Positions 17,701-37,651 of a stretch of DNA of 64,000 nucleotides are shown here, one piece after another. Every line of letters starts with the position of its first letter. The stretch's first letter is position 1. Made by a program: the position numbers and the translations under genes. Source of the stretch: an uncultured Clostridia bacterium (GTDB lineage Bacteria > Bacillota > Clostridia > TANB77 > CAG-508); the NCBI GenBank assembly GCA_947594065.1, contig CANQDX010000003.1:499-64498 (forward strand). The letters are read 5' to 3'. The notes under the pieces are model-generated. The model worked only from the letters and a program-made list of their open reading frames with translations. It ran no database searches and was not told where the DNA came from.

Positions 17701-19963
17701 TACAGTAAACTTTGGACACGAAGAATTAATACCTACTGTAGCAAAAGTAGATCAGAACATTAGAAGCTCAGACATTAAAAATACACAATATAATAAGACT
17801 GGCTTAAAAATACAAGTAACATATAAGTTGACTGTTACAAATGCATCTGTAACAATTGCAAAAGCAAATATTATTACAGATTACTTCGATAACAAATATG
17901 ATTTTGTAGAAGCATATTACTTAAATGGAAATAGTCAATCTAAATTAAGTGCAAGTAGTTCAAACAGAAACGGATATAAATCTGTAGCAATCACAATGCC
18001 AAGCAACTGGTTAAATCAAAATGCATTAATGGATGTATACCTAGTTCTTGATTTAAAAGATGCAGAAACAGTTTTACAACAAATAGTAAATAGTGGAGTA
18101 GGAAACTTACCTACATTCAACATTGCAGAAATAACAGAATATTCAACAACAGTAACAAACGGTAGATCCGAATATACAAGAGGCTTAATAGATAAAGACT
18201 CAGCACCAGGAAGTATAGATAGAGAGCAAGCAAGATTAACAACAACAGTAGGACAAAGTACATCTACAGTAAATGGAAACCCAACAACATTAGGTTACTA
18301 TTATCAAAAAGCAAATGAATATCTAAATGATAGAAGCAAAACAGAAATAAATAACCTAAAATGTGAAGATGATACAACTACATCACCAGTTCTATACTTT
18401 ACAGCTTCCGGAAATAGCAGAACAATAAGCGGAACAGTATTTAGAGATAATACAACAACTAACAATACAACAAGAATAAAAACTGGAAATGGAAAATTAG
18501 ATAATGGCGAAGTAGGAGTATATGGTGCAACAGTAGAATTGATAGAACAAACAAGCAACAACCAAGTTGTAAGATATACTACAACATCAGATAAAAATGG
18601 TAAGTTTACATTCTCAGGATTCTTACCAGGTGATTACTTAATTAGATATCAATATGGTGATACAACAAATACTGTATTGTTAAATCAAGCAGGTTCAAAC
18701 ATTAACAGATATTCATATAACGGAGAAGATTATCAAGCAACAAATAATACAGGAAAATATGGGGCAGAGAAACTAAACGACACAGCAAACTTCTGGTATG
18801 TATACAACGAAAATCAAGGTGTATCAACAGCTACAGATAGTATAAGCAGAAGAAATACTGTAAGTGCAAATGTAACAGACTTTACAGATGAACAAATGAC
18901 AGTATTAAACGATATAAGAGATGGCAAAACTGTGGAACAATCTGTAATTCAAGATATTATTAATAAAACAAAGATGGAATCTAACACACCTAAGTTCCAC
19001 ATCACAGTTGAAAAGACAGAAATTACAAGTGGAGGCTTACAAGAAAGAGAAGCATTTAGTCCATATGATGTAACAAATATGAACTTTGGTGTAGCAGAAG
19101 TACCAGTAACAACAATTAATTTAACAAAACAAATAAAAGAATTCTCAATAATTGATTCATCAGGCGAAAATGTAATAGCAAAAGCAAGTAAAAAAGCAAA
19201 TGGTGATTGGGATAGAGAAGGCGATACACTTATATTACCAAATAAGGGATTTGATGTAAGCGTTATAGATGAGAGATTACAAGGTGCAAAATTAACTGTA
19301 ACTTACGAAATTAAAGCAACAATTGCAATGGAGAAAAACTTCAACAACGGAAATGCAGTTGTACCAACAATTACAGGAATAGTAGACTTTATCGATAATG
19401 ACTTATCATATAATCCAGAGCTAGGAAATAACGATACTTATTGGGAAATAACAACATTTGACCAAGTTAAGAGTACCCTTGCACAAGCACAATACAAACA
19501 AGGAAGTATACCACAAGGTACTGTTGACCCAGATGGAAGCAGATATCAATCATTTGTAAAGGCAAAAGCATCTAACCCATTGCTAACACCAATTAATGGA
19601 ACAGCAACGGTAGAAATAACATTAGAAAAAGTATTATCATCAACAGATTCTACATTCGAGGAAATTGTAACAAGTGCAGTAGATGGTTATGAATATAACA
19701 ATACAATAGAGATAACAGGCTTGAACTATAAGAATGTTACAGATGACGGAACAGAGCCACAAAGAGATAGAGTAAGAATACCAACAAGATATATTATTCT
19801 ACCAGGTGTACAACACGATAGTGCTACATCAGACACAATTAATATTCACCCAAAACTAGGAGATAGCAGTATGATGATAACATACTATGTAATTGCAGCA
19901 GCTTCATTAATTGTATTAGCAGGAGGAATATTCATTATCAAAAAGTATGTAATTGCAAAATAA
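11753..19963 (+). CDS. Giant surface adhesin B1: signal peptide, putative thioester (TQxA-type) domain, 6+1 Ig-like repeats, two SdrD-B-like modules, HPKLG + hydrophobic + KK tail
   Basis: 2736-aa ORF starting 18 nt after A1 with a GGAGG RBS. VYCLNNG (Cys93) and DPSQQALWYY (Gln141). Repeats start [NS]VSLQKYI and end YRTxDxDY[VI]xM. SdrD-B-like strings: GGMVWNDKALNKQQD...SSGNYVFTNLPG and RTISGTVFRDN...DKNGKFTFSGFLPGDYLIRY. Confidence 0.85.
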   Translation: MKKKLKFKIVIMLIAILLLLVPIITKASIYSDSDLKNNRNYVFSNDSYGDESHTKNNHFVEIKVGNEIAVYVNGTSPEMSPHVNTLSLPNVYCLNNGVNAGWGSYKITSVGNKASPLLAYILAQGPTMGQLESNYKNDPSQQALWYYISKSNSSEASFLRGSLGCNSGSPSSKALEYYNDAVAYANKVNNSSGIISEDDVSASIKDSTLTVTVKGSFEKYDLLVNGTKKGEYYVSSGPHSYTVSGDTATVKVIPYEKRYNATYAIIERSGQQRMMAVTSTSYGDELSKIACEKTVRKEETNVSLQKYIAAVNGSTSNIPLQPRTNLQAISSSKNQIYAYNKFINEFGDSTPNSYNGTGYKKTSPVTIKKNDIVTYYIHLYNNGNVSAKVSVNDTLKKLSNSSSTLAFSIAETPKIEFSTKGYNSNGSYSVKSTNSLTYSKSGAYILFNAITLEANSTARITLKIKIEEQIDSGDLIENNAWITGDGYNNPNGYRTDDYDYVKMEQPEATKPNVSLQKYIAQVNNKNLTSAQTSVTNRWNRKDNSESIGQIFDGGIFKDPSGNNGGLSYNNGYKSENPVKIQSGDSVTYYIYVYNNSNKMVKVDVSDHICFVSDSVLSENEYTITQSAYENSSDGYTFTSNGGNSRMTLDYKKEGGTIYFNTITLDGKKAARITLTVKFNTDISSRGVLENYAGIRSTDPTNNTTFRTGDYDYVEMEEPELPPPETPKTNVSLQKYIAQVNGQNLTSENTDVINRWNVQATSQSVNQIFASRTKFVNPGGKEYDGTSNTTIGYKKIDPVLIKQGDIVTYYIYVYANDNKKVDSIIVKDQLTHTNSSTRPSYAIQGSPTIEYSDFGYSYGSAQTLNYTTSNDIITFSSFSLNYQVARITLKVKINEQIPAGDMIENNAYIYDTNPDNNTTYRTSDSDYVEMEEPELPPPEAPKTNVSLQKYIGQVNNKNLTLSMLEIYDRWNRKDVSGSIDKIYDTNIFKAPDGKNMNGSFVNGFKRDYPVTISVGDEVTYYIYVYNNDDETAKLNVSDQLSFVSGSSLSESEYTITQSVYETSSDGHTFNGNSEKLGYARQGNSIYFDAITLSGKTVARITLKVKFNTDISSKGILKNYAYISYTNPNNKTDYRTSDSDYIEMKQPPKGSVSLQKYITQVNNRNLTSDNTSLTKRWNLRDESTSIGQIFNGNIFKNEGGFSSGSSYNTGYKSQNPVIIKQGDTVTYYIYIYNESKDSTKVSVKDTLSFVSNNYLSSSYYSISSITMQYANDAYSFGNISDISYSTSGNTITFNSFNLGGKKAARITLKVKFSTDISAYGVVRNYAYISSTNPSNTTSYRTEDADYVQMVSANVSLQKYIAEVNGQSLTSHQSSIGDRWNLRDTGSSTSQIFGNSGTLKNPNGLWSGSSRTGYKSQNPVLIKKGDVVTYYIYVYNNSHIVDSKVTIEDSLNNSSYSVQSATIEFGDGYNFNGTQSINYTNSNGTMIFDQFTLNRDTAARITLKVAFNTRISLGTTVKNYAKIRSVDLANSTTYRTEDADYLQMEEEYKVSLEKYISSVRNDKGVNESITSRKGQEEYKTERNGKLVDETDKDTDWTQHNRKKELSPVTVGNGYYITYTIEVRNDGECDVYVSEIVDTLPAGISHYKESGYSSNKNDYKARPSGGDITITRTGATLLHPGDSTSVTLTVIVSESNLSMRVLKNTAKITKLTNSDGTQLDADANDKTRYNNQDSDYFQMNLMLPVGIGGMVWNDKALNKQQDSYNGLYDANSESKLAGIKVYLYRDGENGVVATTTTNSSGNYVFTNLPGRNRVTGGFYSYYVVFEYDGITYTPTNDNNNYKKVATPGDDPLTSNAREKLNSTDSFDGIVNKARTTFNNGFGTINNSKGISYTTQNDAGWTPESHHNYNTNMAIQASTEKITIADNATLMAQLQHINLGLRGRDIVDLQLTSDVYSTKVTVNGVDGAYKFNSNQVTVRKEDIGIAEDTVNFGHEELIPTVAKVDQNIRSSDIKNTQYNKTGLKIQVTYKLTVTNASVTIAKANIITDYFDNKYDFVEAYYLNGNSQSKLSASSSNRNGYKSVAITMPSNWLNQNALMDVYLVLDLKDAETVLQQIVNSGVGNLPTFNIAEITEYSTTVTNGRSEYTRGLIDKDSAPGSIDREQARLTTTVGQSTSTVNGNPTTLGYYYQKANEYLNDRSKTEINNLKCEDDTTTSPVLYFTASGNSRTISGTVFRDNTTTNNTTRIKTGNGKLDNGEVGVYGATVELIEQTSNNQVVRYTTTSDKNGKFTFSGFLPGDYLIRYQYGDTTNTVLLNQAGSNINRYSYNGEDYQATNNTGKYGAEKLNDTANFWYVYNENQGVSTATDSISRRNTVSANVTDFTDEQMTVLNDIRDGKTVEQSVIQDIINKTKMESNTPKFHITVEKTEITSGGLQEREAFSPYDVTNMNFGVAEVPVTTINLTKQIKEFSIIDSSGENVIAKASKKANGDWDREGDTLILPNKGFDVSVIDERLQGAKLTVTYEIKATIAMEKNFNNGNAVVPTITGIVDFIDNDLSYNPELGNNDTYWEITTFDQVKSTLAQAQYKQGSIPQGTVDPDGSRYQSFVKAKASNPLLTPINGTATVEITLEKVLSSTDSTFEEIVTSAVDGYEYNNTIEITGLNYKNVTDDGTEPQRDRVRIPTRYIILPGVQHDSATSDTINIHPKLGDSSMMITYYVIAAASLIVLAGGIFIIKKYVIAK
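12653..16960 (+). repeat. Tandem array of seven ~190-217-aa Ig-like domain repeats in B1
   Basis: Repeat starts at 12653, 13286, 13937, 14579, 15197, 15803 (VSLQKYI type) and 16388 (KVSLEKYISSV, divergent). Confidence 0.9.
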
Positions 19964-20306: not shown

Positions 20307-23300
20307 ATGAATCTTAAGAAATTTATTTTAAAATCTGTAGCTACAACAATGGCCATATCATTGGTCTATGGAAATGTTTCTATTTGTGGAATAGGAATAA
20401 GTAAAGCAATCGCTGAAGATAATATTCCACCAGAAATAGGAATAGAACTAAAAAATGAAGAGTATGTTCCATTCCATAAAGAAAAAGAAGAGGTAACAAA
20501 TAAAGGAATAGCAGTTCATAGTAGTTTGGAAATACAACCAAGGTATGAAGATACTAATTACTTACCAACCGAGAAGCTAGACCTAGAAGTAAGCTTACCT
20601 CAAATAAATGGAAGTTATCCAGAAGTTGCAAGTGTAGTAGAAGCCGCTACAGAGTCTACTACTGGCAAAGAATTAAATACAAACATTACTCAGAATTATA
20701 ATAAAGATTCTGGGTTATTAAGTGTTTCTTATTCAGATTCTTCTAATGAAGTAAATAAAAATGAAAAAGATAAGTTTGAAATAATATATATATATCCAGC
20801 AGAAGCTTATACAGAAAATGAAGAAGTTGCATTAAAATATACAGTAAATGCAACATTAACATTAAAAGCAGAAAGTGAAAGCATAACTGCAAAAGGAAAT
20901 AAAGAAATTTCTATCATTGCAAAAGAAGATAAGGGAACCTTAACAGAATTTAACACACAATCAAAAGAAGATATTTATAAAGGTTATTTATATTCAAATG
21001 TAGAAAACAATACAAATTATGAAACGACCTTTAATACTGTATCTACTTATACTGTATTAAATAGTAAATTAGCAGATACAGCAAGATTAATGCTAGAAGA
21101 AAATAAACTTGTATTAAATGATAAACAAAAAACAGAATTAAAAACTGATGGAAATATTGTATATAAACAAACAAAAATAAACAAATATGAATTCGATAGA
21201 ATGTTAGGACAAGAAGGAAAAATAGAAATATATAAAGGAGAAGAAGTATTTGCAACTGTACAATATATTGATATAGATAATACTAAAAAATTAGCAGTTA
21301 TTTACTTAAACGGAAAAGTTGATGTAATTGAAAACGATAGCCAATATATTATTGTTAAATACGAAGAAATCTTTACAGACTTAAATATTGAAATTTCAAA
21401 ACCAATTACAGAAGGTTTCTTACATTTTGAAAATGAAAGTTCAATAAAAGCATCAAAAAATTATGGAAGTAGTGTAGAAAAAATAAATGCAATTAGAGTA
21501 TCCAGCAAGGTAAATGATTACACATATGATACAGACATTAGTTTATCAGAACCAGAAACAAAAATGACAGTTACATCTAGCAATGTAAATTTTTCAACAT
21601 TACAAGTTAATAAAACAACATTAACTGTAAAATTAGACGATACAAATGCTAGTGCAAAATTGTTTAACAACCCTATAATTACTATAAAATTACCAGAAGG
21701 ATTAACAAGTGGTAATTTGTCTAGCCCAAGTCTTGTAAACGAAAATGGATTAAAAATAAAGAAATCATCAACAAATAATAATATCATTACAATCGAATTA
21801 GAAGGAAAACAATCCGCTTACGATTTAGAAAATGTAAGTGGTGGCGTAAGCATTGTAATGGATATTGAAAACTTAAATTACAAAGATACTCTTCCAACAC
21901 ATACAGATAAAATAGAAGTAACTTGTAAACAAGGAAAAGCAGAAACAAAACAAAATATTCCTGTAAATATTGTATCTAAAGCAGGATTATTAATGTTGTC
22001 TAAATTAAGCAACTTTGACAATAGCGGTAGCGTAAGTTCTACAATAGAAGATGCAAAACTAATCGAAATTGGAAGTGATGAACCTGCTAAAGAAGCAGTT
22101 CATACACTTGATTTGGTAAATAATTATAACGAAGATTTAACAAACGTAAAAATTATAGGAAAAGTAGGCTATAGCAATGATGAATTAAAATCTACATTTG
22201 ATACAAACTTAAGCAAAGCTCTTTCAATAGAAAATGCAAAAGTTTATTATTCTACTAATAAAGATGCAAAATTTGAAGATGAAAGCTGGTCAGAAGAATT
22301 TACAAGTGATGCAAAAGCTTTCAAAGTAGAATTAGAAGATAATACAATGTCAAAATCATCAGGAATGGAAATAAAAGAAGCTGTACAAATTCCAGAAAAG
22401 TTAGGTAACAATCAATCAACTTATCTAAATTTAAGTATGTCTTATCAATATCAAGAAAAAACTTTAGAAGATGAAGTTACAATTGGAATGCAAACAACAC
22501 AAGATGGTTTAACAAACAATAGTAGTAAAGCAGAAAAAGAAATAATAACATCAGAAGGTGAAAATTTACCAGTAAGCTTAGAAATAACACCATACATTAA
22601 ACAAAACTATGTACATTCTGGACAAATTGTTATTTACAAATTACAAGTAAGAAATAATTCTGATAAAGATTTAACCAACTTAGTATTAAAAGACATCATT
22701 CCAGAAAATGCAATATACACATATAGAGGATTTGACGAAGAGGAAGAATTAAAAGCAATACAAGAAGATGTAAGAGAAAAGGAATGGGAAATAGAAAGTC
22801 TAAAAGCAGGAGAAGTACAAGAATTTGAAATAGCATTATTAATGAAAGAAACAGACGTAGACTCAACTATTGAAAATAAAATACAATTACAATACGAGGG
22901 ACAAACAATAGAGCAATCAAGTAGCTTAGCTTTAAAACCAGCTAAAGCAACAGTAGTATTAAGTACTTCTATAGATGAAAGTTACATATATGACAGTAGT
23001 ATGGTTACATTTGAAAAAGATGAAGTTGTTCAATATAGAGTAAGAGTAAAAAATATTACGAAAGATAGCTTAAAAAATATTAAAGTAACTTATGAAATTC
23101 CAAAAGAAATGGAATATGTAACTGGCGGTCTTGCTGAACTAGGAGAATATAGATATAACATAACAAAACAAGGAGTTTTAAATAACAATACTTTTGAATA
23201 TACAATTGCAAATTTAACACCAGATGAAGAAGTATTACTATTTATAGAATGTAAAGTAAAATCATTGCAAAAAGATTATAATATTCAAATAAGTGGTATT

Positions 23301-24884
23301 GCTAATGCGGAAGTAGAACAAGACATATATGAATCTAATACAAAAACAATTGAAACTTCTCAAGCAGTATACAATATGACTGTAACTCCTAATATACCAA
23401 CTGAACAATTGCTAGCAATGGGAGATAAGATAGTTTATACAATTAATGTAACAAATATTGGAAATAATTTTGGATCTACTGATGTAAAATACAGTATTCC
23501 TGAGGGAATAGAAGTAGAAAAAATTGAATATGGCAAAAAAGGCGAAAAACCATCTATTATAGAAACATCATTAAAAGAAAGAGAAATAAATATTACATTA
23601 GATCCACAAGAAATAGAAGAAATTAAAATTACAGGTACAGTAGTAGGCAAAGAAGTAGAAAAAACTACTATTTTGGAATTAACAAGTAACATTCAATTAA
23701 TTGTAGGAGAAGAAGTAATTTTATCTAATGAATTAACACATAAAATGGCAATAGAAGTAGTTATTCCAGATAATCCAAGCAATCCTGATAATCCAAATAA
23801 TCCAGACAAACCAGATAGACCAAGCAATCCAGATAACCCAAGCAATCCAGGAAATCCAACTAACCCAGAAAACCCAGAAACAAATTCTTATACAATATCT
23901 GGAACAGCGTGGGTAGATGAAAATAAAGATGGTAAAAGAGATGAAGGCGAAAAATTGCAAGATAGTGTAATAGTAAGCTTAATAAACAAAGAAACAGGAA
24001 ACTTTGCTTTAGACCAAAATGGAAATAGAATTACTACAGTAACAGATGCAAACGGAAATTATACATTTGCAAATATTCCAAAAGGAAACTATATAGTATT
24101 ATTTGAATTTGATACTAATACTTATACTGTAACTACTTATCAAAAAGATGGAGTAAAAGAAAATTGTAATTCAGATGCTATTATGTCTAACGTTACAATA
24201 GATGGACAAGAAAAACTAGTTGCAATTACAAATACTATGTCATTAGATGAAAATACAAGTAATATAGACATTGGTCTAATAGTAAATGCAACATTCGATT
24301 TAAGCATAGAAAAATTAGTTTCAAAAGTTGCTGTTGTAGATAAACGTGGAACAGAAGAAACAACTTACGACAATAGCAATGTAGCAAAAGTAGACTTAGT
24401 TGCAAAATATATGAAAGGTGCTAATGTAATTGTAACTTACAAATTTGTAATAAAGAACGAAGGAGAAGTAGCAAGCTTTGCAGATAGTTTAGTAGATAAT
24501 TTACCAAGCGGATTAGAGTTTAACTCAGAATTAAATCCAGACTGGTATAGAGGAAATGATGGCAGCATATATACAACAGCATTAGCAGGAAAAACAATAC
24601 AACCAGGTGAAAGCATTACAACAGAATTAGTATTAACAAAGAAAATGACAGAAGAAAATACAGGAACATTTCCTAATAGTGCAAAACTAGAAAAAATAAG
24701 TAACTTACAAAATATAGTAGAAAACGAAAAAGCAATGGAAAATAATGAATCATCAGCATTGTTAATCATATCAATAAAAACAGGTTCAGTATGGCTATAT
24801 ACAGGAATTACGTTAGTTTGTTTAGGAATATTACTTGTAGGAACTTATTTCATTAAGAAAAAAGTTCTAAATAGAGGAATATAA
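20307..24884 (+). CDS. Giant surface protein A2 (paralog of A1, same architecture)
   Basis: 1525-aa ORF. The first ~70 aa and last ~330 aa are almost identical to A1 and the central part is diverged. Same DUF11-like modules, NPx linker, SdrD-B-like module and SIKTGS tail. Confidence 0.85.
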   Translation: MNLKKFILKSVATTMAISLVYGNVSICGIGISKAIAEDNIPPEIGIELKNEEYVPFHKEKEEVTNKGIAVHSSLEIQPRYEDTNYLPTEKLDLEVSLPQINGSYPEVASVVEAATESTTGKELNTNITQNYNKDSGLLSVSYSDSSNEVNKNEKDKFEIIYIYPAEAYTENEEVALKYTVNATLTLKAESESITAKGNKEISIIAKEDKGTLTEFNTQSKEDIYKGYLYSNVENNTNYETTFNTVSTYTVLNSKLADTARLMLEENKLVLNDKQKTELKTDGNIVYKQTKINKYEFDRMLGQEGKIEIYKGEEVFATVQYIDIDNTKKLAVIYLNGKVDVIENDSQYIIVKYEEIFTDLNIEISKPITEGFLHFENESSIKASKNYGSSVEKINAIRVSSKVNDYTYDTDISLSEPETKMTVTSSNVNFSTLQVNKTTLTVKLDDTNASAKLFNNPIITIKLPEGLTSGNLSSPSLVNENGLKIKKSSTNNNIITIELEGKQSAYDLENVSGGVSIVMDIENLNYKDTLPTHTDKIEVTCKQGKAETKQNIPVNIVSKAGLLMLSKLSNFDNSGSVSSTIEDAKLIEIGSDEPAKEAVHTLDLVNNYNEDLTNVKIIGKVGYSNDELKSTFDTNLSKALSIENAKVYYSTNKDAKFEDESWSEEFTSDAKAFKVELEDNTMSKSSGMEIKEAVQIPEKLGNNQSTYLNLSMSYQYQEKTLEDEVTIGMQTTQDGLTNNSSKAEKEIITSEGENLPVSLEITPYIKQNYVHSGQIVIYKLQVRNNSDKDLTNLVLKDIIPENAIYTYRGFDEEEELKAIQEDVREKEWEIESLKAGEVQEFEIALLMKETDVDSTIENKIQLQYEGQTIEQSSSLALKPAKATVVLSTSIDESYIYDSSMVTFEKDEVVQYRVRVKNITKDSLKNIKVTYEIPKEMEYVTGGLAELGEYRYNITKQGVLNNNTFEYTIANLTPDEEVLLFIECKVKSLQKDYNIQISGIANAEVEQDIYESNTKTIETSQAVYNMTVTPNIPTEQLLAMGDKIVYTINVTNIGNNFGSTDVKYSIPEGIEVEKIEYGKKGEKPSIIETSLKEREINITLDPQEIEEIKITGTVVGKEVEKTTILELTSNIQLIVGEEVILSNELTHKMAIEVVIPDNPSNPDNPNNPDKPDRPSNPDNPSNPGNPTNPENPETNSYTISGTAWVDENKDGKRDEGEKLQDSVIVSLINKETGNFALDQNGNRITTVTDANGNYTFANIPKGNYIVLFEFDTNTYTVTTYQKDGVKENCNSDAIMSNVTIDGQEKLVAITNTMSLDENTSNIDIGLIVNATFDLSIEKLVSKVAVVDKRGTEETTYDNSNVAKVDLVAKYMKGANVIVTYKFVIKNEGEVASFADSLVDNLPSGLEFNSELNPDWYRGNDGSIYTTALAGKTIQPGESITTELVLTKKMTEENTGTFPNSAKLEKISNLQNIVENEKAMENNESSALLIISIKTGSVWLYTGITLVCLGILLVGTYFIKKKVLNRGI
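23766..23880 (+). repeat. (Asn-Pro-x)n linker repeat in A2, longer than in A1
   Basis: PDNPSNPDNPNNPDKPDRPSNPDNPSNPGNPTNPENPE. Confidence 0.9.
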
Positions 24885-24904: not shown

Positions 24905-27900
24905 ATGAGTAAAAACTTAAAATTTAAAATAATAACAATAATGATATTTGCAATATTCTTACTTTTAGTTCCTATGCAAAATATTGTGCAAGCAAGTACA
25001 TTTGAAGATTATGGAAAATATAGTAATTGGAGAGAGTATATTTTCAATAATGTTAATAAGGCAACAAGAGTTGGTGACGATATGGTAATGCAAGATTATG
25101 GAAAAAATAATAAAGATGGTGACTATATATCTACTTTAAGTCTTCTAAATACATATTGTGTTGGACACGGTATAAAACTTCATCAAACCACATATAAATC
25201 AATAAGTAAAAGCGCATTTACCGTTACAGATCCTATATTAGAATACATTTTTGCAAATGGTCCTGCAGGATATGGTGTAACTACAGGAGGTAAGCTAGAA
25301 AGTGAGTATTGGACAGAACCAAGTCAAATAGTTTTATGGCATTATTTATTAAGTAACGCATCTAAAAATTCTTACGATGCCAATATTATGACAAATGGTA
25401 ATCCAGGTGGATACGGTCATAGTTCTTCATATTATGAATGCTGCGATATATTATTCAATAAAGATCATAAAACACTTAAAGAATTAACAGGAAAGTATAA
25501 AGAGTTTTGGGACGCAGCACAAAACTATAAACAAATGGTGAGCCACATTAATGGTCAACCAAAATTAAGTGCAAAACTTGATGGTAATACTTTAAAAGTA
25601 ACAGTAAGTGGCGATTTCACAGATTTTGAACTAAAAATAAACGACCAATCAAAAGGAAAATACACAAAATCTATGGATGAAACCAAAGTAATTACATTTA
25701 ATAATGTTAGTAGCTCTTCATCTATCAAAGTAACAGTAACAGCAGAAAGATATGAATATAATGTAAAATATTATGTATATGTAGATTCTGCAAATAGATA
25801 CCAACCAGTGGTTGTTATAACAGATGTTACTAAAAGAATAGTTACTACATCAACTACAACTACTATTAATAATAAGGTTAATATTTCATTACAAAAACAT
25901 ATTGCAATGGTAAATGATAAAAGATTAACAGTAAATAATTCAGATGAAACTTGGAGAACAAATTTGAAAGCAGAAAGTAGTTCAACAAGTAAAATTCATA
26001 ATGGTAAATTTTATAATGAACACGTAGGCTTATATGATAAAGATGGAGGAAGTAAAGAAGGAATAAAGAAACAATCTCCTGTTGCTATCCAAAAAGGAGA
26101 TATTGTAACCTACTACATACATATTTATAATAATGGTACAGCAACTGCTAATAATATTATTTTAAAAGATACTTTAACCCATTTGGGAAGTACAAATACA
26201 CCTAGTTTCAGTATTGAGAGTGCGTTATTAGAATTTGGTACATATGTAGAACCAGGTTTGTACGATATGTATACACCTTTTAAAGCCACATCTCAAAGAA
26301 ACTTAGGTTATACTAAGAGTGGTAAAACGATGACATTTAATTCATTCTCCTTAAATGGAGGATCTATGGCTCGTTTAACATTAAAGGTAAAAATCAATGA
26401 GCAAATTTACAAGGGAGAACTAATAGAAAATAATGTATATATATCAAATTATACTAACCCAGAGGGCTATAGAACAAGCGACTCAGATTATGTTACAATG
26501 AATGAAATACCAAAAACAAATGTAAGTGTATCTTTACAAAAATATATTGCTGAAGTAAACGGACAAAGTTTAACAGCTGACAACACAGATACTACAAAGA
26601 GATGGAATTTAAGAGCACAATCAAATAGTATAAGCCAAATTTTCAGTACTCGTTTGAAATATACAAGCCCAGAGGGAGATTATGTTGGAACTTCTTATGA
26701 TGAAAGAGGTTATAAAATTCAACACCCTGTTACAATAAAAAATGGTGATGTTGTAACATATTATATATTTGTTTATGTTCACGATAATAGCTATGTTGCA
26801 AATGATATTATTGTAAAAGATCAATTAACTCATAGAAACAGTGATTCAAGTCCATCTTATATTATACAAGAACAACCTATTATTGAGTACAGTTATGATG
26901 GAAATAGTTCTTTTGATGATGCAAGTCCGCTAGGATTTAATATAAGCAATAATATGATTACATTTAGTCCATTTAATTTAAATAATAAAGCAGCTCGTAT
27001 TACATTAAAAGTAAAAATAAATGAACAAATTCCAGCAGGAGATATGATAGAAAACAAAGCATATATATATGATACAGACCCAGAAAATAATACAACATTT
27101 AGAACCGAAGACGCAGATTATGTAAAAATGATTGAACAAGATACTCCAAAAACAAACGTATCTTTACAAAAATATATTGCACAAGTAAATAATCAAAATT
27201 TAACAGCAAGTAATACATCAGTTCAAAATAGATGGAATTTGAAAGATGAACAAGGCAGCATAGACCAAATTTTTGATGGAAACATATTTAAGAACCCAGC
27301 TGGATTGCAATATAGTACATCTTATAGAGATTTAAAGAGCAAAAATGCTGTTAAGATTATAAAAGGAGATACAGTAACTTATTATATCTATGTTTATAAT
27401 AATAGTGAAAATAAAACAAATCTTTATGTAACAGATATATTAGGATTTGTATCTTTACAAAATAATCTTTCAGATAATGATTATACTATAATTAATAGCA
27501 CAATAGAGTTTGGCAGCGATGGATTTAACTTCAGTAATGGCAAGGAGCTTACATATGATAAAAATGGAAATAAAATAGAATTTGATACATTCGATTTGGA
27601 AGGTAAAACAGCTGCTCGTATAACATTAAAAGTTAGATTTGATACAGATATTTCTGATAAGGGAGTTTTAAGAAATTATGCTTGTATCAGTTACACTAGC
27701 CCAGAAAATAATACAACTTATAGAACAGAAGATGCAGACTATATTGAAATGGTAAAAGAATTCAAAGTAAGTTTGGAAAAATATATTTCTTCTGTACATA
27801 ACGATAAAGGCGTAAATGTACCTATTAATTCAAGAAGCGGTTTAGAAGAATATAAAACAGAAAGAAATGGTAGATTAGTAGACGAAACGGATAAAGATAC

Positions 27901-30900
27901 TGATTGGACACAACATAACAAGAGAAAAGAGCTTTCACCAGTAACAGTAGGAAATGGATATTATATTACTTATACAATTATAGTAAGAAATGATGGAATT
28001 TGCCCAATAACAGTTAGCAAAATTATAGATAGTTTACCAGAAGGAATTTCTTACTATAAAGACGGTGGATATTCTGCAACATTAAGTGATTATACAGCAA
28101 GACCAAGTGGTGGTGATATTACAATAACAAGAACCGGTGCAACATTGTTAAAACCAGGAGGTAGCACATCTGTATTACTTACTGTTGTTGTAAGCGAATC
28201 TAACCTTTCTATGAGGGTATTGAAAAATACAGCTAAAATTACAGAACTTAAAGATGGAAATGACATATTAGTTGCAGATAAGTATGATATGACACCATAT
28301 AATAACCAAGACTCTGATTATTTCCAAATGAACTTAATGCTACCAGTTGGAATTAGAGGAATGGTATGGAATGATAAAGCATTAAATAAACAACAAGATA
28401 ATTACAATGGAATATATGATGCAGACAAGGAAAATAAATTAGGCGGAATTAAAGTTTACTTATATAGAGAAGGAGAAAATGGATTTGTAGCTACTACAAC
28501 AACAGATTCAGACGGAAATTACGAATTTACAAATATTCCAGGACGTAACAGAGTAACAGGAGATTTCTATTCATACTATGTAGTATTCGAATATGATGGT
28601 ATTACTTATACACCAACTGTTTATGCAGAAGCGATAACATCAAAAGATATAGAACATACATCAAATGCACAAGAAAAATTAAATAGTAATGATAGTTTTG
28701 ACGGAAGAGTAAATAAAGCAAGAACAACATTTAATAATGAATTTGGTACAATAAATAATTCTACTAAGGAAATTAAATATACAACACAAAACGAAGATGG
28801 CTGGACACCAGAGTCACATCATATCTATAATTCAAATATGGCAATTCAAGCTTCAACTAGAAAAATTACAATAAGAGATAATGATAGCGATTTAATGGCA
28901 AAATTACAACACATCGACTTAGGATTAAGAGGTAGAGATATAGTAGACTTACAATTAACATCAGATGTATATTCTACAAGGGTAACAGTAAATGGTGTAG
29001 ATGGAGCATATAAATTCAATAGCAACCAAGTTACAGTAAGACAAGAAGATATAGGTATAAAACCAGATGCAGCAAACTTTGGACGTGAAGAATTAATACC
29101 TTCTATATCAGAAGTAAATCAAGAAATCAGAAAAACAGATATTAAAAATTCTCAATATGATCATACAGGTTTAAAAATACAAGTAACATATAAATTAACT
29201 ATTAAAAATGCATCTGTAACAACTGCAAAAGCAAATATTATTACAGATTACTTCGATAACAAGTATGATTTTGTAGAAGCATATTACCTAAACGGAAATA
29301 CTAAATCTACATTAAATACATCAACTGGAACAAGCGGAAATGGATATAAATCTGTAGCAATCACAACTCCAAACAGCTGGTTAAATCAAAATGCATTAAT
29401 GGATATATACTTAGTTCTTGATTTAAAAGATGCAGAAACAGTTTTACAACAAATAGTAAATAGTGGAGTAGGAAACTTACCTACATTCAACATTGCAGAA
29501 ATAACAGAATACTCAACAACAGTAACAAGCGGTGGAACAGAGTTTACAAGAGGCTTAATAGATAAAGACTCAGCACCAGGAAGTATAGATAGAGAGCAAG
29601 CAAGATTAACAACAACATTATGGAGTACACCTACAGAAGGTGGAAATCCAACAACATTAGGTTACTATTATGGAAAAGCAATTGAATATTTAAATGACAG
29701 AAGCAAAACAGAAATAAATAACCTAAAATGTGAAGACGATACAACTACATCACCAGTTCTATACTTTACAGCTTCCGGAAATAACAGAACAATAAGCGGA
29801 ACAGTATTTAGAGATAACACAAAAACTGATGCTACAACAAGAATAAAAACCGGAAATGGAAAATTAGATAATGGCGAAGTAGGAGTATATGGAGCAACAG
29901 TAGAATTAATAGAATTAGTAGGAAATGACCAAAAAGTAAGAAGTAAAGTAACAACAGGAACAGACGGAAAATACACATTCTCAGGATTCTTACCAGGTAA
30001 CTATATTATAAGATATCATTATGGTGATACAACAAATACTGTATTATTAAATCAAGCAGGTCCAGACATTAATAAATATTCATATAACGGAGAAGATTAC
30101 CAAGCAACAAATAATACAGGAACGTACGGAGCATCTAAATTAGATACTACACCAGACTTCTGGTATGTATATAACGAAAACCAAGGTGTATCAACAGCTA
30201 CAGATAGTATAAGCAGAAGAAATACTGTAAGTGCAAATGTAACAAACTTTACAGATGAGCAAATGACAGTATTAAATAATATAAGAGACGGTAAAAATGC
30301 TGAAGATGCAAAAGTAACTTACACAAAGGCCGATGGTACTACAGAAACTATTACTGTACAAGACATTATAGATAAAACAAATATGGAATCTAACACACCT
30401 TCATTCCGAATCACAGTTGAAAAAACAGAAATTACAAGTGGAGGCTTACAAGAAAAAGCAGCATTTAGTCCATACACTGTAACAAATATGAACTTTGGTG
30501 TAGCAGAAGTACCAGTAACAACAATTAATTTAACAAAACAAATAAAAGAATTCTCAATAATTGACTCTGCAGGCGAAAATGTAATGGCAAAAGCAACTAG
30601 AAAAGCAAATGGTGATTGGGATATTCCGGAGGCAGACAGCGATGTACTTATATTACCAGGTAAGGGATTAGATGTAAGTGTTATAGATGAGAGATTACAA
30701 GGTGCAAGATTAACAGTAACATATACAATTACTTCAACTATCTCATTAGAGAAAAACTTCAACAACGGAAATGCGGTTGTACCAACAATTACAGGAATGG
30801 TAGACTTTATCGATAACGACTTATCATATAATCCAGATTTGGGAAACAACAATACTTATTGGGAATCAGTAACATTTGATGATGTAAGAAATATATTTGC

Positions 30901-31381
30901 ACAAGCTAAGTATAAAAATGGAAGTGTTCCAAAAGGAACAGTTGATCCAGACGGAACTAAATTCCAGACAATTGTAAAAGCAAAATCATCTAACCCAATA
31001 CTAACACCAACAAACGGAACAGCAACAACAGAAATAACATTAGAAAAAGTATTATCATCAACAGATTCAACATTCCAAGAAATTGTAACAAGTGCAGTAG
31101 ATGGTTATGAATACAACAACACAGTAGAAATAACAGGTTTGGACTATAAGAATGTTACAGATGACGGAACAGAGCCACAAAGAGATAGAGTAAGAATACC
31201 AACAAGATATATTATTCTACCAGGCGTACAACACGATAGTGCTACATCAGACACAATTAATATTCACCCAAAACTAGGAGATAGCAGTATGATGATAACT
31301 TACTATGTAATTGCAGCAGTTTCATTAGTTGTATTAGCAGGAGGAATCTTCATTATCAAAAAATATGTAATTGCAAAATAA
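24905..31381 (+). CDS. Giant surface adhesin B2 (paralog of B1; divergent N-terminal Cys/Gln domain, 3+1 repeats)
   Basis: 2158-aa ORF starting 20 nt after A2. TYCVGHG (Cys85) and EPSQIVLWHY (Gln141). The C-terminal ~1200 aa are highly similar to B1, with the same HPKLGD tail. Confidence 0.85.
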   Translation: MSKNLKFKIITIMIFAIFLLLVPMQNIVQASTFEDYGKYSNWREYIFNNVNKATRVGDDMVMQDYGKNNKDGDYISTLSLLNTYCVGHGIKLHQTTYKSISKSAFTVTDPILEYIFANGPAGYGVTTGGKLESEYWTEPSQIVLWHYLLSNASKNSYDANIMTNGNPGGYGHSSSYYECCDILFNKDHKTLKELTGKYKEFWDAAQNYKQMVSHINGQPKLSAKLDGNTLKVTVSGDFTDFELKINDQSKGKYTKSMDETKVITFNNVSSSSSIKVTVTAERYEYNVKYYVYVDSANRYQPVVVITDVTKRIVTTSTTTTINNKVNISLQKHIAMVNDKRLTVNNSDETWRTNLKAESSSTSKIHNGKFYNEHVGLYDKDGGSKEGIKKQSPVAIQKGDIVTYYIHIYNNGTATANNIILKDTLTHLGSTNTPSFSIESALLEFGTYVEPGLYDMYTPFKATSQRNLGYTKSGKTMTFNSFSLNGGSMARLTLKVKINEQIYKGELIENNVYISNYTNPEGYRTSDSDYVTMNEIPKTNVSVSLQKYIAEVNGQSLTADNTDTTKRWNLRAQSNSISQIFSTRLKYTSPEGDYVGTSYDERGYKIQHPVTIKNGDVVTYYIFVYVHDNSYVANDIIVKDQLTHRNSDSSPSYIIQEQPIIEYSYDGNSSFDDASPLGFNISNNMITFSPFNLNNKAARITLKVKINEQIPAGDMIENKAYIYDTDPENNTTFRTEDADYVKMIEQDTPKTNVSLQKYIAQVNNQNLTASNTSVQNRWNLKDEQGSIDQIFDGNIFKNPAGLQYSTSYRDLKSKNAVKIIKGDTVTYYIYVYNNSENKTNLYVTDILGFVSLQNNLSDNDYTIINSTIEFGSDGFNFSNGKELTYDKNGNKIEFDTFDLEGKTAARITLKVRFDTDISDKGVLRNYACISYTSPENNTTYRTEDADYIEMVKEFKVSLEKYISSVHNDKGVNVPINSRSGLEEYKTERNGRLVDETDKDTDWTQHNKRKELSPVTVGNGYYITYTIIVRNDGICPITVSKIIDSLPEGISYYKDGGYSATLSDYTARPSGGDITITRTGATLLKPGGSTSVLLTVVVSESNLSMRVLKNTAKITELKDGNDILVADKYDMTPYNNQDSDYFQMNLMLPVGIRGMVWNDKALNKQQDNYNGIYDADKENKLGGIKVYLYREGENGFVATTTTDSDGNYEFTNIPGRNRVTGDFYSYYVVFEYDGITYTPTVYAEAITSKDIEHTSNAQEKLNSNDSFDGRVNKARTTFNNEFGTINNSTKEIKYTTQNEDGWTPESHHIYNSNMAIQASTRKITIRDNDSDLMAKLQHIDLGLRGRDIVDLQLTSDVYSTRVTVNGVDGAYKFNSNQVTVRQEDIGIKPDAANFGREELIPSISEVNQEIRKTDIKNSQYDHTGLKIQVTYKLTIKNASVTTAKANIITDYFDNKYDFVEAYYLNGNTKSTLNTSTGTSGNGYKSVAITTPNSWLNQNALMDIYLVLDLKDAETVLQQIVNSGVGNLPTFNIAEITEYSTTVTSGGTEFTRGLIDKDSAPGSIDREQARLTTTLWSTPTEGGNPTTLGYYYGKAIEYLNDRSKTEINNLKCEDDTTTSPVLYFTASGNNRTISGTVFRDNTKTDATTRIKTGNGKLDNGEVGVYGATVELIELVGNDQKVRSKVTTGTDGKYTFSGFLPGNYIIRYHYGDTTNTVLLNQAGPDINKYSYNGEDYQATNNTGTYGASKLDTTPDFWYVYNENQGVSTATDSISRRNTVSANVTNFTDEQMTVLNNIRDGKNAEDAKVTYTKADGTTETITVQDIIDKTNMESNTPSFRITVEKTEITSGGLQEKAAFSPYTVTNMNFGVAEVPVTTINLTKQIKEFSIIDSAGENVMAKATRKANGDWDIPEADSDVLILPGKGLDVSVIDERLQGARLTVTYTITSTISLEKNFNNGNAVVPTITGMVDFIDNDLSYNPDLGNNNTYWESVTFDDVRNIFAQAKYKNGSVPKGTVDPDGTKFQTIVKAKSSNPILTPTNGTATTEITLEKVLSSTDSTFQEIVTSAVDGYEYNNTVEITGLDYKNVTDDGTEPQRDRVRIPTRYIILPGVQHDSATSDTINIHPKLGDSSMMITYYVIAAVSLVVLAGGIFIIKKYVIAK
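25880..28335 (+). repeat. Tandem array of four Ig-like domain repeats in B2
   Basis: Repeat starts at 25880 (NISLQKHI), 26519 (NVSVSLQKYI), 27155 (NVSLQKYI) and 27764 (KVSLEKYISSV). Confidence 0.9.
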
Positions 31382-31388
31382 GTAAATT

Positions 31389-31432
31389 AGAATGACCTTA
31401 AAAGGAATAACCTTTTAAGGTCATTCCTTTAA
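31389..31432 (+). terminator. Terminator after B2
   Basis: GAATGACCTTAAAAGG AATAA CCTTTTAAGGTCATTC, homologous to the B1 terminator. Confidence 0.8.
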
Positions 31433-31476
31433 AATAAGGAAAATTTTTGAATTTTCTTATTTGTTCATAAAATGTA

Positions 31477-31505
31477 TTTAAAATGTTAAAAATTCGTGTT
31501 ATAAT
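31477..31505 (+). promoter_or_regulatory. Candidate sortase promoter (extended -10)
   Basis: TGtTATAAT at 31497-31505; weak -35 TTTAAA at 31477-31482. Confidence 0.4.
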
Positions 31506-31525
31506 AGATATGAAGGAGATAAAAG

Positions 31526-32326
31526 ATGAATCAGATATTAGTATGCGAAAAAATATATGTAACACCAGAATTAAAAAGAAAAAAGAAACTATATAAATTC
31601 AACTTTATAGCTTCTATTTTTCTTGTTATTGTTTTATTTGGTTATTATGTATATGCTGAATATGATAGAAATTCATCTGACAAGTCTAAAGAAATTCTTT
31701 CACAGCTAGAGGTAGTAGAAACTCCTGTAGATGTTGGACAAATAGATTCTACAGTAAAATTACAAGATGATGTACTAGTGGTAGTGCTAGATGATACACA
31801 AGAAGATACTTCAGAATCAACAGAAGTAAATTTGGAAGAATTAATAGAAGCAAACAAAAGAGCAGAATCTAAAATAGATACAAAATATTATCAAACCAAA
31901 AGTGGAGAAAGTTATACAACTGTAGCAGTAATAGAAATACCAAAAATAAATGTTACTTATCCTGTTATTTATAGTAAAAATACAAGTGCTGAAACAACAG
32001 AGGAATTATTAAAAATTTCAGTAGTAAAATATTGGGGACCTGAACCAAATGAGCAAGGTAATTTCTGTATTGTAGGGCATAATTACCATAATAAAAAATT
32101 TTTCAGTAAAGCATCTACCTTGAAAAAGGGAGACAGTATTTATTTAACAGGTACTAACAACGAAACTTTAGAGTATAAGGTGTATGATAATTATGTTGTA
32201 GAGCCTAATAATTTAAAATGTACCAGTCAATTAACAAATGGTCAAACAGAACTTACTTTAATCACTTGCACAATGACAGGAAAGCAAAGAACAATTATTA
32301 AAGCAAGAGCGGTCAGTGCAAACTAA
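31526..32326 (+). CDS. Sortase-family transpeptidase (N-terminal TM anchor, acidic spacer, TLITC active site)
   Basis: FCIVGHNY (His185), TELTLITCT (Cys248), GKQRTIIKA (Arg255). No C-terminal TM segment and no obvious DP[WFY] lid. Confidence 0.85.
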   Translation: MNQILVCEKIYVTPELKRKKKLYKFNFIASIFLVIVLFGYYVYAEYDRNSSDKSKEILSQLEVVETPVDVGQIDSTVKLQDDVLVVVLDDTQEDTSESTEVNLEELIEANKRAESKIDTKYYQTKSGESYTTVAVIEIPKINVTYPVIYSKNTSAETTEELLKISVVKYWGPEPNEQGNFCIVGHNYHNKKFFSKASTLKKGDSIYLTGTNNETLEYKVYDNYVVEPNNLKCTSQLTNGQTELTLITCTMTGKQRTIIKARAVSAN

Positions 32327-32365
32327 TTTAACTAATAACTTGGTAATTTCTAGTAAATTGAATAT

Positions 32366-32394
32366 TTGATTGAAAACCTTCTTAGTGTTATGTT
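32366..32394 (+). promoter_or_regulatory. Candidate autolysin promoter
   Basis: TTGATT 32366-32371, 17-nt spacer, TGt TATGTT 32386-32394. Overlaps a perfect 14-bp palindrome at 32388-32401. Confidence 0.4.
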
Positions 32395-32419
32395 AACATA
32401 ATATTAAGGAGGTTTTTGT

Positions 32420-34213
32420 ATGAATAATAAAATAAGTCTAAGATTAGTATCACTCATTATTTGCATCATAATGATGACTACATTTATGATGCCAGCTGTA
32501 GTGAATGCATCTAGCTTATCCGATTCTGCTAAAAAAACAGTATTAAAAACAGTAAATGATATAGAAAAATATATAGATGAAAATAAATATCCTGGTTATA
32601 AGGAAAAATTAGTTGCATTAAAAAAAGCGAATCCTAACTGGAAATTTACTTTATATTATACAGGATTAAATTGGGAAACTGTTGTATATAACGAAGCAAA
32701 GGGATTACATAGCAGAAGCTTAGTACAAGGTAAAACAGGAGAATGGTTATGCGAGAATTGTGGAACAAAAGTATATGATGCAGGTGGTTGGATGTGTGCT
32801 TCAGAAAAGGCTGTAAGTTATTTAATGGATGTGAGAAATTATTTAACAGCAAGTTACATATTTCAGTTTGAAGAACTATCTTATAATAAAGATACATACA
32901 CAATCGATGGCATAGAAAAAGTATTAAATGGAACATTTATGTATAAAAAAAGCATAAGAGATTATTATAATAATTCTAAATTTGAAGATATTACATTTTC
33001 AAAAGCAATTATGGAAGCAGCAAATCAAAGTGGGGTAAGCCCTTATTATTTAGCCGCAAGAATTAGACAAGAAATTGGTGTAAATGGATCTAACTCTATT
33101 TATGGAACATATAAAGGATATGAAGGATACTACAATTTTTATAACATTGGTGCTACAAGTGGAAGTGACCCAATTGCAAATGGATTAAAATATGCTTCTA
33201 ATACAAGCGTAGGAAAATACTTATTACCTTGGAATGATCCTATAAAAGCAATTAAAGGTGGAGCAATATGGATTGCAACAAATTATATTGCAGTAGGTCA
33301 AGATACATTATATTTCCAAAAATTTGATGTTGTACAAAATGGAACAGCATTTTATAATCACCAATATATGCAAAATATCTTTGCTGCCAAAAACGAAGGA
33401 TATACGACATATAATGCATATAGTAAATTAGGACTATTAGATAATAATTACAACTTTATAATACCAGTATACGAAAAAATGCCAAAGGCAGTATCTACAG
33501 AACCTAAAAATACTGTAACAAGCGAACAAATGAAAGTAACAGAAAATAATGTAATGCTTAGAGAAGAGCCAACAACTTCTAGCGCAAGATTAGCTGTTTT
33601 AAAGAAAGATACAGTTTTAACTAGACTAGAGGCGAAAGTGGCAACTGCAAACGGATATAGTTGGGATAAGGTAAGATTATCAAATGGAACAGTAGGTTAT
33701 GTAGCAACTAACTATCTAAGCGCTGTAAAAGCAAATTCATCAAGTAGTTCTTCAAGCACAAGTTCATCAGAAAAAGTAAAAGTAAATGCAAGTAATGTAA
33801 ATGTAAGAAAAAGTGCAACTACATCTAGTAGCAAAATAACAACATTAGCTAAAAATACTGTTGTAACAAGATTACAAAAGAATGTAGCATATAAAAATGG
33901 CTACTACTGGGATAAGATACAATTATCAAATGGCAAAACAGGTTATATGGCATCTAAATATTTAACGGTTGTAAGTTCTTCATCTAGCAGTAATAGCAGT
34001 TCATCATCAGGCGAAAAAGTTAAAATAAATGCAAGTAGAGTAAATGTAAGAAAGAGTGCAACAACATCTAGTGGAGTAATAAAAACACTTTCAAAAAATA
34101 CAGTAGTAACAAGATTACAAAAGAAAGTAGCATATAAAAACGGTTACTACTGGGACAAAGTAAAGTTATCTGATGGAAAAATAGGATATATTGCTTCAAA
34201 ATATTTATCATAA
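32420..34213 (+). CDS. Secreted peptidoglycan hydrolase: GH73 N-acetylglucosaminidase-type domain + three SH3b domains with poly-Ser linkers
   Basis: Signal peptide. AIMEAANQSGVSPYYLAARIRQEIGV...YNFYNIGA (glucosaminidase motif). Three SH3b-like units (...NGYSWDKVRLSNGTVGYV; ...NGYYWDKIQLSNGKTGYM; ...NGYYWDKVKLSDGKIGYI). Confidence 0.85.
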   Translation: MNNKISLRLVSLIICIIMMTTFMMPAVVNASSLSDSAKKTVLKTVNDIEKYIDENKYPGYKEKLVALKKANPNWKFTLYYTGLNWETVVYNEAKGLHSRSLVQGKTGEWLCENCGTKVYDAGGWMCASEKAVSYLMDVRNYLTASYIFQFEELSYNKDTYTIDGIEKVLNGTFMYKKSIRDYYNNSKFEDITFSKAIMEAANQSGVSPYYLAARIRQEIGVNGSNSIYGTYKGYEGYYNFYNIGATSGSDPIANGLKYASNTSVGKYLLPWNDPIKAIKGGAIWIATNYIAVGQDTLYFQKFDVVQNGTAFYNHQYMQNIFAAKNEGYTTYNAYSKLGLLDNNYNFIIPVYEKMPKAVSTEPKNTVTSEQMKVTENNVMLREEPTTSSARLAVLKKDTVLTRLEAKVATANGYSWDKVRLSNGTVGYVATNYLSAVKANSSSSSSSTSSSEKVKVNASNVNVRKSATTSSSKITTLAKNTVVTRLQKNVAYKNGYYWDKIQLSNGKTGYMASKYLTVVSSSSSSNSSSSSGEKVKINASRVNVRKSATTSSGVIKTLSKNTVVTRLQKKVAYKNGYYWDKVKLSDGKIGYIASKYLS

Positions 34214-34240
34214 TGAAAAACAAACGCATATAATATTTTG

Positions 34241-34290
34241 AAGGGGAACCAAAAAGGGTCAGACCCTTTTGGGTTCCCCTTATTTTTTCT
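34241..34290 (+). terminator. Terminator after the autolysin gene
   Basis: AAGGGGAACC..AAAGGGTC AGA GACCCTTTT..GGGTTCCCCTT followed by a T-run. Confidence 0.85.
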
Positions 34291-34306
34291 TTTTGGAGGT
34301 ACTTTT

Positions 34307-36130: not shown

Positions 36131-36304
36131 TTTTTTTACCTCCTGTATATTATAAACAAATAATAGAAAAAAGAAAACACTTTTTTAATATAAATTTTAT
36201 TAAATAGAAAATTTGTGTATTGTATTGAAATTTAAAAATATCTATTTATTTTTTAAAAAAATAATGGTATGATATAAATATATTAGATAAAATGGAGAAA
36301 AAAT

Positions 36305-37093: not shown

Positions 37094-37101
37094 GGAATCT
37101 T

Positions 37102-37648: not shown

Positions 37649-37651
37649 TCT

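Follow-up and report, generated by a model that had tools for sequence, protein, structure and literature searches.

The 64,000-nt window analysed here (positions 499 to 64,498 of contig CANQDX010000003.1, from an uncultured Clostridia bacterium of the CAG-508 lineage) has a G+C content of ~29% and contains four large genes on the same strand, A1, B1, A2 and B2, between ksgA and a sortase gene (Table 1). The B genes encode long paralogous proteins, and the N-terminal tip domain of B2, together with the stalk that carries it, is the subject of this analysis. The B2 reading frame follows a strong Shine-Dalgarno sequence (AGGAGG, 8-13 nt upstream). A Lys-rich N-terminus, a hydrophobic core and a VQA cleavage-like site suggest that residues 1-30 form a Sec-type signal, and the mature N-terminal domain extends from the cleavage site (VQA/S) to where the stalk repeats begin (ISLQKHI at 25883). 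Pfam and NCBIfam annotation covers the stalk only (DUF11, SdrD_B and similar).

B1 and B2 resemble each other to very different degrees along their length. Sliding-window identity begins at 25-36% (first ~300 residues), rises to 45-65% among the ~205-aa repeats, of which B1 has six and B2 three, and reaches 73-95% across the C-terminal ~1200 residues (B1 1546-2736; B2 954-2158). A first-pass annotation of the window had described the B2 tip as a strongly diverged Cys/Gln domain on a conserved stalk, and this non-uniform profile bears out its description of a highly similar C-terminal region. It had also called the tips barely alignable by eye, which is fair; yet the match between them is statistically solid (29% identity, E = 7e-30 with BLASTP). 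The stalk repeats, each of which opens with (V/I)SLQK(Y/H)I, are 45-75% identical, and the paralogues show a periscope-like variation in length.

Table 1. Coordinates of genes, domains and motifs at the A-B locus (positions in the window).
Feature	Position	Strand	Description
ksgA	6117-6974
A1	7208-11734	+	1508 aa; DUF11, SdrD_B; SIKTG sorting-like signal; partner surface protein
A1 copy of identical tract	11195-11520	+	326 nt; 3' part of A gene, just upstream of B1 tip
A1 sorting-like signal	11621-11635	+	SIKTG; from sequence
B1	11753-19963	+	2736 aa; B2 paralogue with 6 repeats
B1 thioester-like domain	11834-12655	+	residues 28-301; AF2, Foldseek, sub-threshold Pfam TED
B1 Cys93	12029-12031	+	YCLN; counterpart of B2 Cys85
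B1 Gln141	12173-12175	+	T motif SQQALW; counterpart of B2 Gln141
B1 candidate bond Gln272 (or Gln271)	12566-12568	+	QQRMM, within SGQQRMMAVTS
B1 stalk repeats	12656-16390		six
B1 sorting-like signal	19847-19861	+	HPKLG; Leu at scissile-Thr position
A2	20307-24884	+	1525 aa; A1 paralogue
A2 copy of identical tract	24345-24670	+	326 nt; 3' part of A gene, just upstream of B2 tip
A2 sorting-like signal	24771-24785	+	SIKTG; from sequence
B2	24905-31381	+	2158 aa; signal peptide, putative TED at the tip, three repeats, then conserved stalk and sorting signal; ORF (open reading frame) list and translation
B2 predicted signal peptide	24905-24994	+	residues 1-30, ...NIVQA/S; Sec-type; read by eye from sequence
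B2 thioester-like domain	24995-25879	+	residues 31-325; class II type; AF2 model, Foldseek, B1 homology
B2 Cys motif	25154-25165	+	YCVG, within TYCVGHG; Cys85 = TGT 25157-25159; predicted thioester Cys
B2 ILEYIFANGP	25235-25264	+	residues 111-120; first helix of helical lobe; family motif DPxLAYILxxGP
B2 T motif (TQxxΦW)	25322-25339	+	SQIVLW, within EPSQIVLWHY; Gln141 = CAA 25325-25327
B2 Cys179-Cys180	25439-25444		YYECCDILF
B2 candidate ΦQζΦΦ	25799-25813	+	YQPVV, within NRYQPVVVITD; Gln300 = 25802-25804
B2 stalk repeats	25883-27766	+	three, ~205 aa, DUF11-type; each begins (V/I)SLQK(Y/H)I
B2 conserved proximal stalk	27767-31381	+	residues 955-2158; DUF11, SdrD_B/CnaB-like (Pfam)
B2 sorting-like signal	31265-31279	+	HPKLG; Leu at scissile-Thr position; then transmembrane helix, KK tail
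Sortase	31526-32326	+	266 aa; next gene after B2; catalytic motif TLITC; Pfam Sortase E 2e-25
Protein with SH3_3 domains	32420-34213		597 aa; downstream of sortase

The predicted structures of the two tips point to a thioester domain (TED). The tips were modelled in separate AlphaFold2 (AF2) runs from shallow and largely overlapping alignments of 14-15 sequences (B2, pLDDT 73.8 and pTM 0.74; B1, pLDDT 81.5 and pTM 0.76), and both models were compared with 350,542 PDB chains using Foldseek at a significance threshold of E<1e-3. Only two entries reached this threshold, and they were the same for both tips: 6FWY and 6FWV, with E-values of 1e-5 and 2.6e-4 over 272-301 aligned columns for B2, and of 6e-5 and 2.5e-4 over 250-256 columns for B1. 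These structures are EfmTIE86 of E. faecium and BaTIE of B. anthracis, two of the class II TEDs (Miller et al., 2018; PMC6194298). SaTIE of S. aureus (6FX6), the remaining one of the three known class II TEDs, was found with the B1 tip at E 0.049 over 236 columns. Foldseek probabilities for the TED matches are 0.96-1.0, and significant E-values range from 1e-5 to 9e-4. The order of structural elements fits a β-barrel lobe, a three-helix bundle and a sandwich inserted before the P-Q hairpin, at TM-scores of only 0.24-0.33. Residues 31-325 of B2 are thus very likely a highly divergent class II TED, to judge from the models and the motifs. The suggestion of the first-pass annotation that a TED-type module stands on a conserved stalk is supported by these structures and by the identity profile; rather than folding into something unrelated, both predicted tips significantly match class II TEDs alone.

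Short motifs mark the same domain. In B2, Cys85, ILEYIFANGP and Gln141 lie exactly where they had been placed, and B1 carries the equivalent elements in the same order (YCLN, LLAYILAQGP and SQQALW). The distance from the Cys to the T-motif Gln is 48 residues in B1 and 56 in B2, next to 52 in BaTIE and 54 in EfmTIE86. Both T motifs carry Ser in place of Thr. In the AF2 models of both tips, the Cys motif is placed on a strand, the T motif on a helix and the C-terminal Gln motif on a strand; in B2, Cys85 ends a β-strand, as does the B1 Cys, ILEYIFANGP forms helix 80-87 and the T motif lies in helix 109-121. A comparison by eye shows AVYRVLLNGYP of BaTIE at a similar distance after the Cys to that of ILEYIFANGP. 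In an alignment of 54 homologous tips, the Cys column is retained in all 48 sequences that cover it and the equivalent of Gln141 in 46/51, while the helix motif keeps its Tyr in 43/50, its Ile in 41/50 and its Leu in 38/50. The patterns [YF]C-Φ-ζ, xQxxΦW and xQ[RNK]ΦΦ are kept across the family. B2 has two further cysteines, Cys179 and Cys180, in a variable insert that links the T-motif helix to the third helix. The same insert holds extra Cys residues in the relatives P0003 (EEHSCCTAY) and P0005/P0009 (several), in proteins that are otherwise Cys-poor, and these cysteines might be joined in a disulfide or bind a metal.

Sequence searches bear on the same assignment. The B1 tip matches the Pfam TED family (PF08341) over profile positions 2-102 of 102 with 17.0 bits (E 0.008), the gathering threshold being 22 bits. 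Among 20 tip-only sequences, Pfam TED is the sole family that recurs (7/20 at E≤10; best E 2.5e-5), and an iterated hidden Markov model (HMM) joins B1 and B2 to the members with a Pfam TED match, with E-values of 1e-60 or below. A profile of the two tips retrieved 17 proteins among 1.84 billion representatives, which marks the tip family as rare, and YC[VA][QE], DPxLAYIL and [SA]QIALW are common to all 17. A word-indexed protein search gave no matches with the B2 tip and three fragments only with a 14-sequence profile, a tblastn search of plasmids gave no match, and two JGI metagenome scans, one with the B2 tip and one with the B2 stalk, found no relatives.

Several of these comparisons weigh against membership of the TED family. 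The B2 tip has no Pfam TED match even at E≤10, and the B1 match stays below the gathering score. Superposition on the crystal structures is poor globally (rmsd 9-12 Å, with the low TM-scores given above), so that the fold match is only local, and the N-terminal lobe of the B2 model is of low confidence. Profile-profile comparison of the family with the BaTIE sequence (hhalign) was not significant and aligned the T motif alone, and neither was its comparison with an alignment of 18 Bacillus TEDs significant. This outcome is unsurprising because the solved class II members share only 18-23% identity, but it still counts as a negative. No TED was returned by PDB sequence searches with the B2 tip or with tip-only profiles of 2 and 14 sequences. 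A 40-sequence profile matched BaTIE mainly through the downstream CnaB/SpaA domains; the TED region itself reached an i-E of 0.023, in an alignment that is partly out of register, with the LAYIL of the family on AYCL of BaTIE and the C-terminal Gln on Gln266. TED membership is therefore very likely but unproven, since the tips stay below the Pfam threshold and the fold match is local.

The low TM-scores and the insignificant hhalign results would also suit a different module that contains a Cys, for instance a lectin or an enzyme of the papain or transglutaminase kind, whose motifs resemble those of TEDs by coincidence. We regard this as highly improbable. No alternative fold or Pfam family recurs, the three motifs agree with TEDs in order, spacing and secondary structure, and some members of the family lack exactly the sandwich insert by which class II TEDs differ from class I. 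The family alignment contains no conserved His or Asp partner for a catalytic Cys, and a catalytic cysteine enzyme was dropped as a candidate on this ground.

If the tip is a TED, the residue that forms the bond can be predicted from known TEDs. According to the TED literature (PMC4450167; PMC6194298), the bond-forming Cys lies in a [YFL]CΦζ motif on a strand and the bond-forming Gln in a weak ΦQζΦΦ motif on a C-terminal β-strand; TQxxΦW, on a central helix, has a Gln and a Trp that touch the Cys backbone and neither form nor are required for the bond. The same literature finds only the Cys and the Gln universally conserved, and class II members often lack a clear ΦQζΦΦ. The bond-forming Gln follows its Cys at a distance of 150-205 residues, and TQxxΦW occurs in most but not all TEDs. 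The first-pass annotation had paired Cys85 with Gln141. This pairing does not stand: Gln141 is the helical TQxxΦW Gln and is predicted, from motif and model, not to form the bond. A better candidate is Gln300. Its column aligns with Gln266 of BaTIE, the crystallographic thioester Gln (HMMER), and is Gln in 16/17 sequences that reach it in a narrower alignment and in 21/31 in a wider one. The spacing from the Cys to the C-terminal Gln is 179 residues in B1 and 215 in B2, and 195 in BaTIE (Cys71-Gln266), 204 in EfmTIE86 and 171 in SaTIE. In the AF2 models, a β-sandwich of ~7 strands is followed by a long hairpin, and this Gln stands at the turn of the hairpin or where its second strand begins; as modelled, this is the P-Q hairpin arrangement of class II. 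The predicted thioester pairs are accordingly Cys85-Gln300 in B2 and Cys93-Gln272 in B1, with Gln271 as the alternative in the latter.

At the polar position, B2 is atypical in both bond motifs (YCVG and YQPVV); this counts against a covalent B2 tip and could alter or abolish bond formation. Across the tip family, the fourth position of the Cys motif is usually hydrophilic (Q 18, E 16, N 6, G 3), and the Gly of B2 is atypical. The B2 tip might thus retain the TED fold in a "dead" or re-tuned form, with a thioester that is absent or much less reactive and with non-covalent binding. Both polar residues are indeed uncommon in the family (G in 3/48, P in 1/31), and the lack of a Pfam TED match for B2 is in keeping with such a loss. 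We nevertheless think it unlikely, since B2 keeps the Cys and both Gln residues, the B2-like allele of another sample (P0002, 87% identical) keeps YCVG, which indicates that the variant is maintained, and the literature finds nothing beyond the Cys and the Gln to be universal in TEDs.

When one genome for each GTDB species was scanned with the alignment of the stalk, 60 loci (L001-L060) emerged, all in metagenome-assembled genomes (MAGs) of uncultured gut Clostridia/Bacillota, from human (Hadza, Nepal), BRZ-labelled, rabbit, goat and chicken samples. Most loci hold A-B gene pairs, often as tandem A-B-A-B arrays, and the iterated HMM finds a homologous tip on most B-type proteins. In the tips of L009 (2-3850) and L003 (2639-8353), the third helix leads straight to the Gln-bearing hairpin (e.g. 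...KINEYHVKIYYLTCGVESWQQLILVEP) with no β-sandwich insert, and these tips look class I-like in layout within the same family. Synteny links the locus to L001 and L002, where one B gene and an orthologous sortase occupy the same ksgA-proximal site, and L004 has one A-B pair there where the window has A-B-A-B. The adhesin genes thus stand at a conserved chromosomal site, with ksgA on one side and sortase/SH3-protein/dapA on the other (window 1149-6956 and 28568-39490, compared with L001/L002/L004), and this site is a copy-number-variable adhesin locus.

The tip and the stalk of the B proteins appear to differ in age. In codon-based windows along B1 and B2, the synonymous divergence (dS) is 1.2-1.6, and saturated, in the tip, 0.5-1.0 in the repeats and 0.13-0.6 in the stalk; the ratio of non-synonymous to synonymous divergence (dN/dS) lies between 0.24 and 0.71 in all windows. 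The first-pass annotation had proposed that the tips were diversified while the shaft was kept, that is, a single duplication followed by diversifying selection on the tips, for different ligands or immune escape, and purifying selection on the shaft and anchor. The climb in identity from ~30% in the tip to ~80-95% in the stalk, the peak of dN/dS (0.71), which falls in a window of the C-terminal portion of the tip, and the variable specificity loop that the TED literature proposes next to the thioester are consistent with this history. The dN/dS values do not uphold diversifying selection, because no window exceeds 1; simple positive selection was dropped for the same reason. Furthermore, dS itself is ~tenfold higher in the tip (3-10 times that of the stalk), which selection at the protein level leaves unexplained. 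Since dS differs between tip and stalk and dN/dS stays below 1, different ages are needed in addition to different constraints.

The relationships among tips also disagree with a single duplication. The B1 and B2 tips are 28% identical (79 bits) on stalks that are 80% identical. By comparison, the B1 tip is 32% identical to that of P0003 (107 bits; stalk 48%) and 34% identical to that of P0006 (106 bits; stalk 41%), and the B2 tip is 35% identical to that of P0003 (111 bits; stalk 48%). Each tip is thus nearer to tips on distant (37-50% identical) stalks than to its paralogue in the window; overall, stalk identity between the B proteins of the window and seven compared relatives is 36-50%. Just upstream of the tips, the 3' parts of A1 and A2 share an identical tract of 326 nt, flanked by windows with dS of 0.2-0.5. 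Past this tract, identity falls off across the A stop codon, the spacer and the sequence for the signal peptide, and where the mature tip begins it is no higher than background. The tract is a recent gene-conversion footprint between the tandem cassettes, directly visible in the sequence, and it likewise speaks against a history of selection alone, which we consider improbable. A comparable break separates L001 and L002, which belong to related MAGs: the 6.2-kb upstream flank is 90% identical at the nucleotide level up to the start codon, and the B proteins are 20-45% identical in the distal ~1250 residues and 75-92% identical in the proximal ~1000. The best reading of these data is that old tip (and repeat) cassettes stand on a recently duplicated or homogenised stalk, or that recombination has swapped the tips. 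The cassettes may be maintained by selection for diversity in ligands or antigens. A point on the other side is that tip dS is saturated and the tip alignment gappy, so that episodic positive selection is possible there. Mosaicism between tip and stalk is common among adhesins.

In architecture the B proteins resemble the TIE type, with a TED-like tip, DUF11/SdrD_B repeats and an adjoining sortase gene, and the stalk has SdrD_B/CnaB-like and SpaA-like Pfam matches. Their HPKLG signal departs from the LPxTG type. Leu takes the place of the scissile Thr of sortase substrates, which makes covalent wall anchoring uncertain. Across L001-L060, the B-type C-termini consist of xPxTG, a transmembrane segment and a basic tail (IHPPTG in the closest relatives, PPFG or PPLG in some lineages), and the A-type proteins carry SIKTG-like C-terminal signals. 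The sortase reaches no NCBIfam class cut-off, the best class being C with 62 bits against 160, and close orthologues stand directly after B in L001 and L002. In addition to its TLITC motif it has an N-terminal extension of ~130 aa. It is the one sortase gene seen beside the A and B genes in the window, whose other ORFs were unscreened for sortases. A1 and A2 (~1500 aa) have no recognisable adhesive domain in the annotation; they are 54-62% identical in a variable patch at approximately residues 900-1150 and 90-100% identical at the ends of the protein. The 597-aa protein encoded downstream of the sortase contains three copies of the SH3_3 domain, weakly matches a glucosaminidase (SagB-like) and is probably a cell-wall hydrolase or wall-binding protein. 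ARAGORN detected no tRNA genes in the window.

The pairing of SIKTG-type signals on the A proteins with xPxTG-type signals on the B proteins, alongside an unclassified sortase, would fit a more far-reaching scheme. In this scheme, the A-B pairs of small-genome gut Clostridia make up a hitherto undescribed system in which a dedicated sortase assembles two proteins into giant fibres. Its distal module (TED tip and repeats) would be a recombination cassette that passes among paralogues, and from one species to another, at a fixed chromosomal hot spot beside ksgA. Each strain would then possess a changeable repertoire of covalent adhesins. We rate this scheme as speculative and rather unlikely.

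Taken together, B1 and B2 are probably surface-anchored covalent fibrillar adhesins with TED tips and a mosaic history of tip and stalk. On this interpretation, B2 would be exported through its signal peptide, and the adjacent sortase would process the HPKLG/transmembrane signal and anchor the protein at the surface, although the change of Thr to Leu makes cleavage uncertain. The conserved stalk of ~1200 aa, together with three repeats in B2 or six in B1, an architecture evident from the sequence, would project the tip. Cys85 and Gln300 would spontaneously form an internal thioester with loss of NH3, as the fold, the motifs and the literature suggest; it would be buried between the β-barrel lobe and the three-helix lobe, and Gln141 and Trp145 of the SQIVLW helix would pack on the Cys backbone and form no bond. 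By analogy with SfbI and FbaB (PMC4450167), a target amine, typically a Lys side chain, would attack the thioester, giving an intermolecular isopeptide bond on Gln300 that tethers the cell. A variable specificity loop next to the thioester has been proposed for TEDs (PMC4450167; PMC6194298), and the tips of B1 and B2, with ~30% identity and indels before the Cys, in the region of this proposed loop, probably bind different targets. The tips would represent old lineages, with stalks and A genes that were recently duplicated and/or gene-converted, or tips that were exchanged by recombination.

The class II TIE proteins share with B1 and B2, as modelled here, an N-terminal domain behind a signal peptide, a Cys on a strand, a TQxxΦW helix ~50 residues further on, a Gln ~170-215 residues after the Cys in a hairpin that follows an inserted sandwich of ~7 strands, a stalk of immunoglobulin-like repeats and a sortase-type C-terminus. 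B1 and B2 differ from them in having only ~11% sequence identity, in falling below the Pfam TED threshold and in that their thioester is predicted. Their stalk consists of DUF11-type repeats and the 1200-aa conserved region instead of a few CnaB isopeptide domains, and they are 4-5 times longer, end in HPKLG rather than LPxTG and are paired with an A protein. The class I TEDs (SfbI, FbaB, Cpa and CpTIE; Walden et al., 2015; PMC4450167) employ the Cys-Gln thioester towards a target Lys that is proposed for B1 and B2, which bonds bacterium and host covalently, and the class I adhesins of streptococci and clostridia likewise show allelic and tip variability. In contrast to B1 and B2, they have no β-sandwich insert and an extra N-terminal helix. 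As in periscope adhesins such as SasG, the number of repeats varies between paralogues (6 versus 3), which changes their reach, whereas periscope repeats are near-identical tandem copies, unlike the more divergent repeats of B1 and B2 (PMC9210967).

Long Firmicute adhesins whose unannotated N-termini are divergent TEDs have already been described (Monzon et al., 2022; PMC9210967). The TED clusters missed by Pfam in that study (clusters 8, 17, 19, 21 and 24) have 28,000-54,000 MGnify homologues (one has 3,617), compared with the 17 proteins of the B1/B2 profile. With Pfam-missed divergent TEDs on long stalks on record, the B proteins reveal no new kind of system. What they provide is a concrete predicted chemistry, covalent adhesion through Cys85 and Gln300, for unannotated proteins of 2000-2700 aa that are widespread in low-GC uncultured gut Clostridia, with the mutagenesis target corrected from Gln141 to Gln300 (Gln272 in B1). 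They also suggest that adhesin tips in this lineage vary through cassette-like mosaicism and gene conversion, beyond faster protein evolution.

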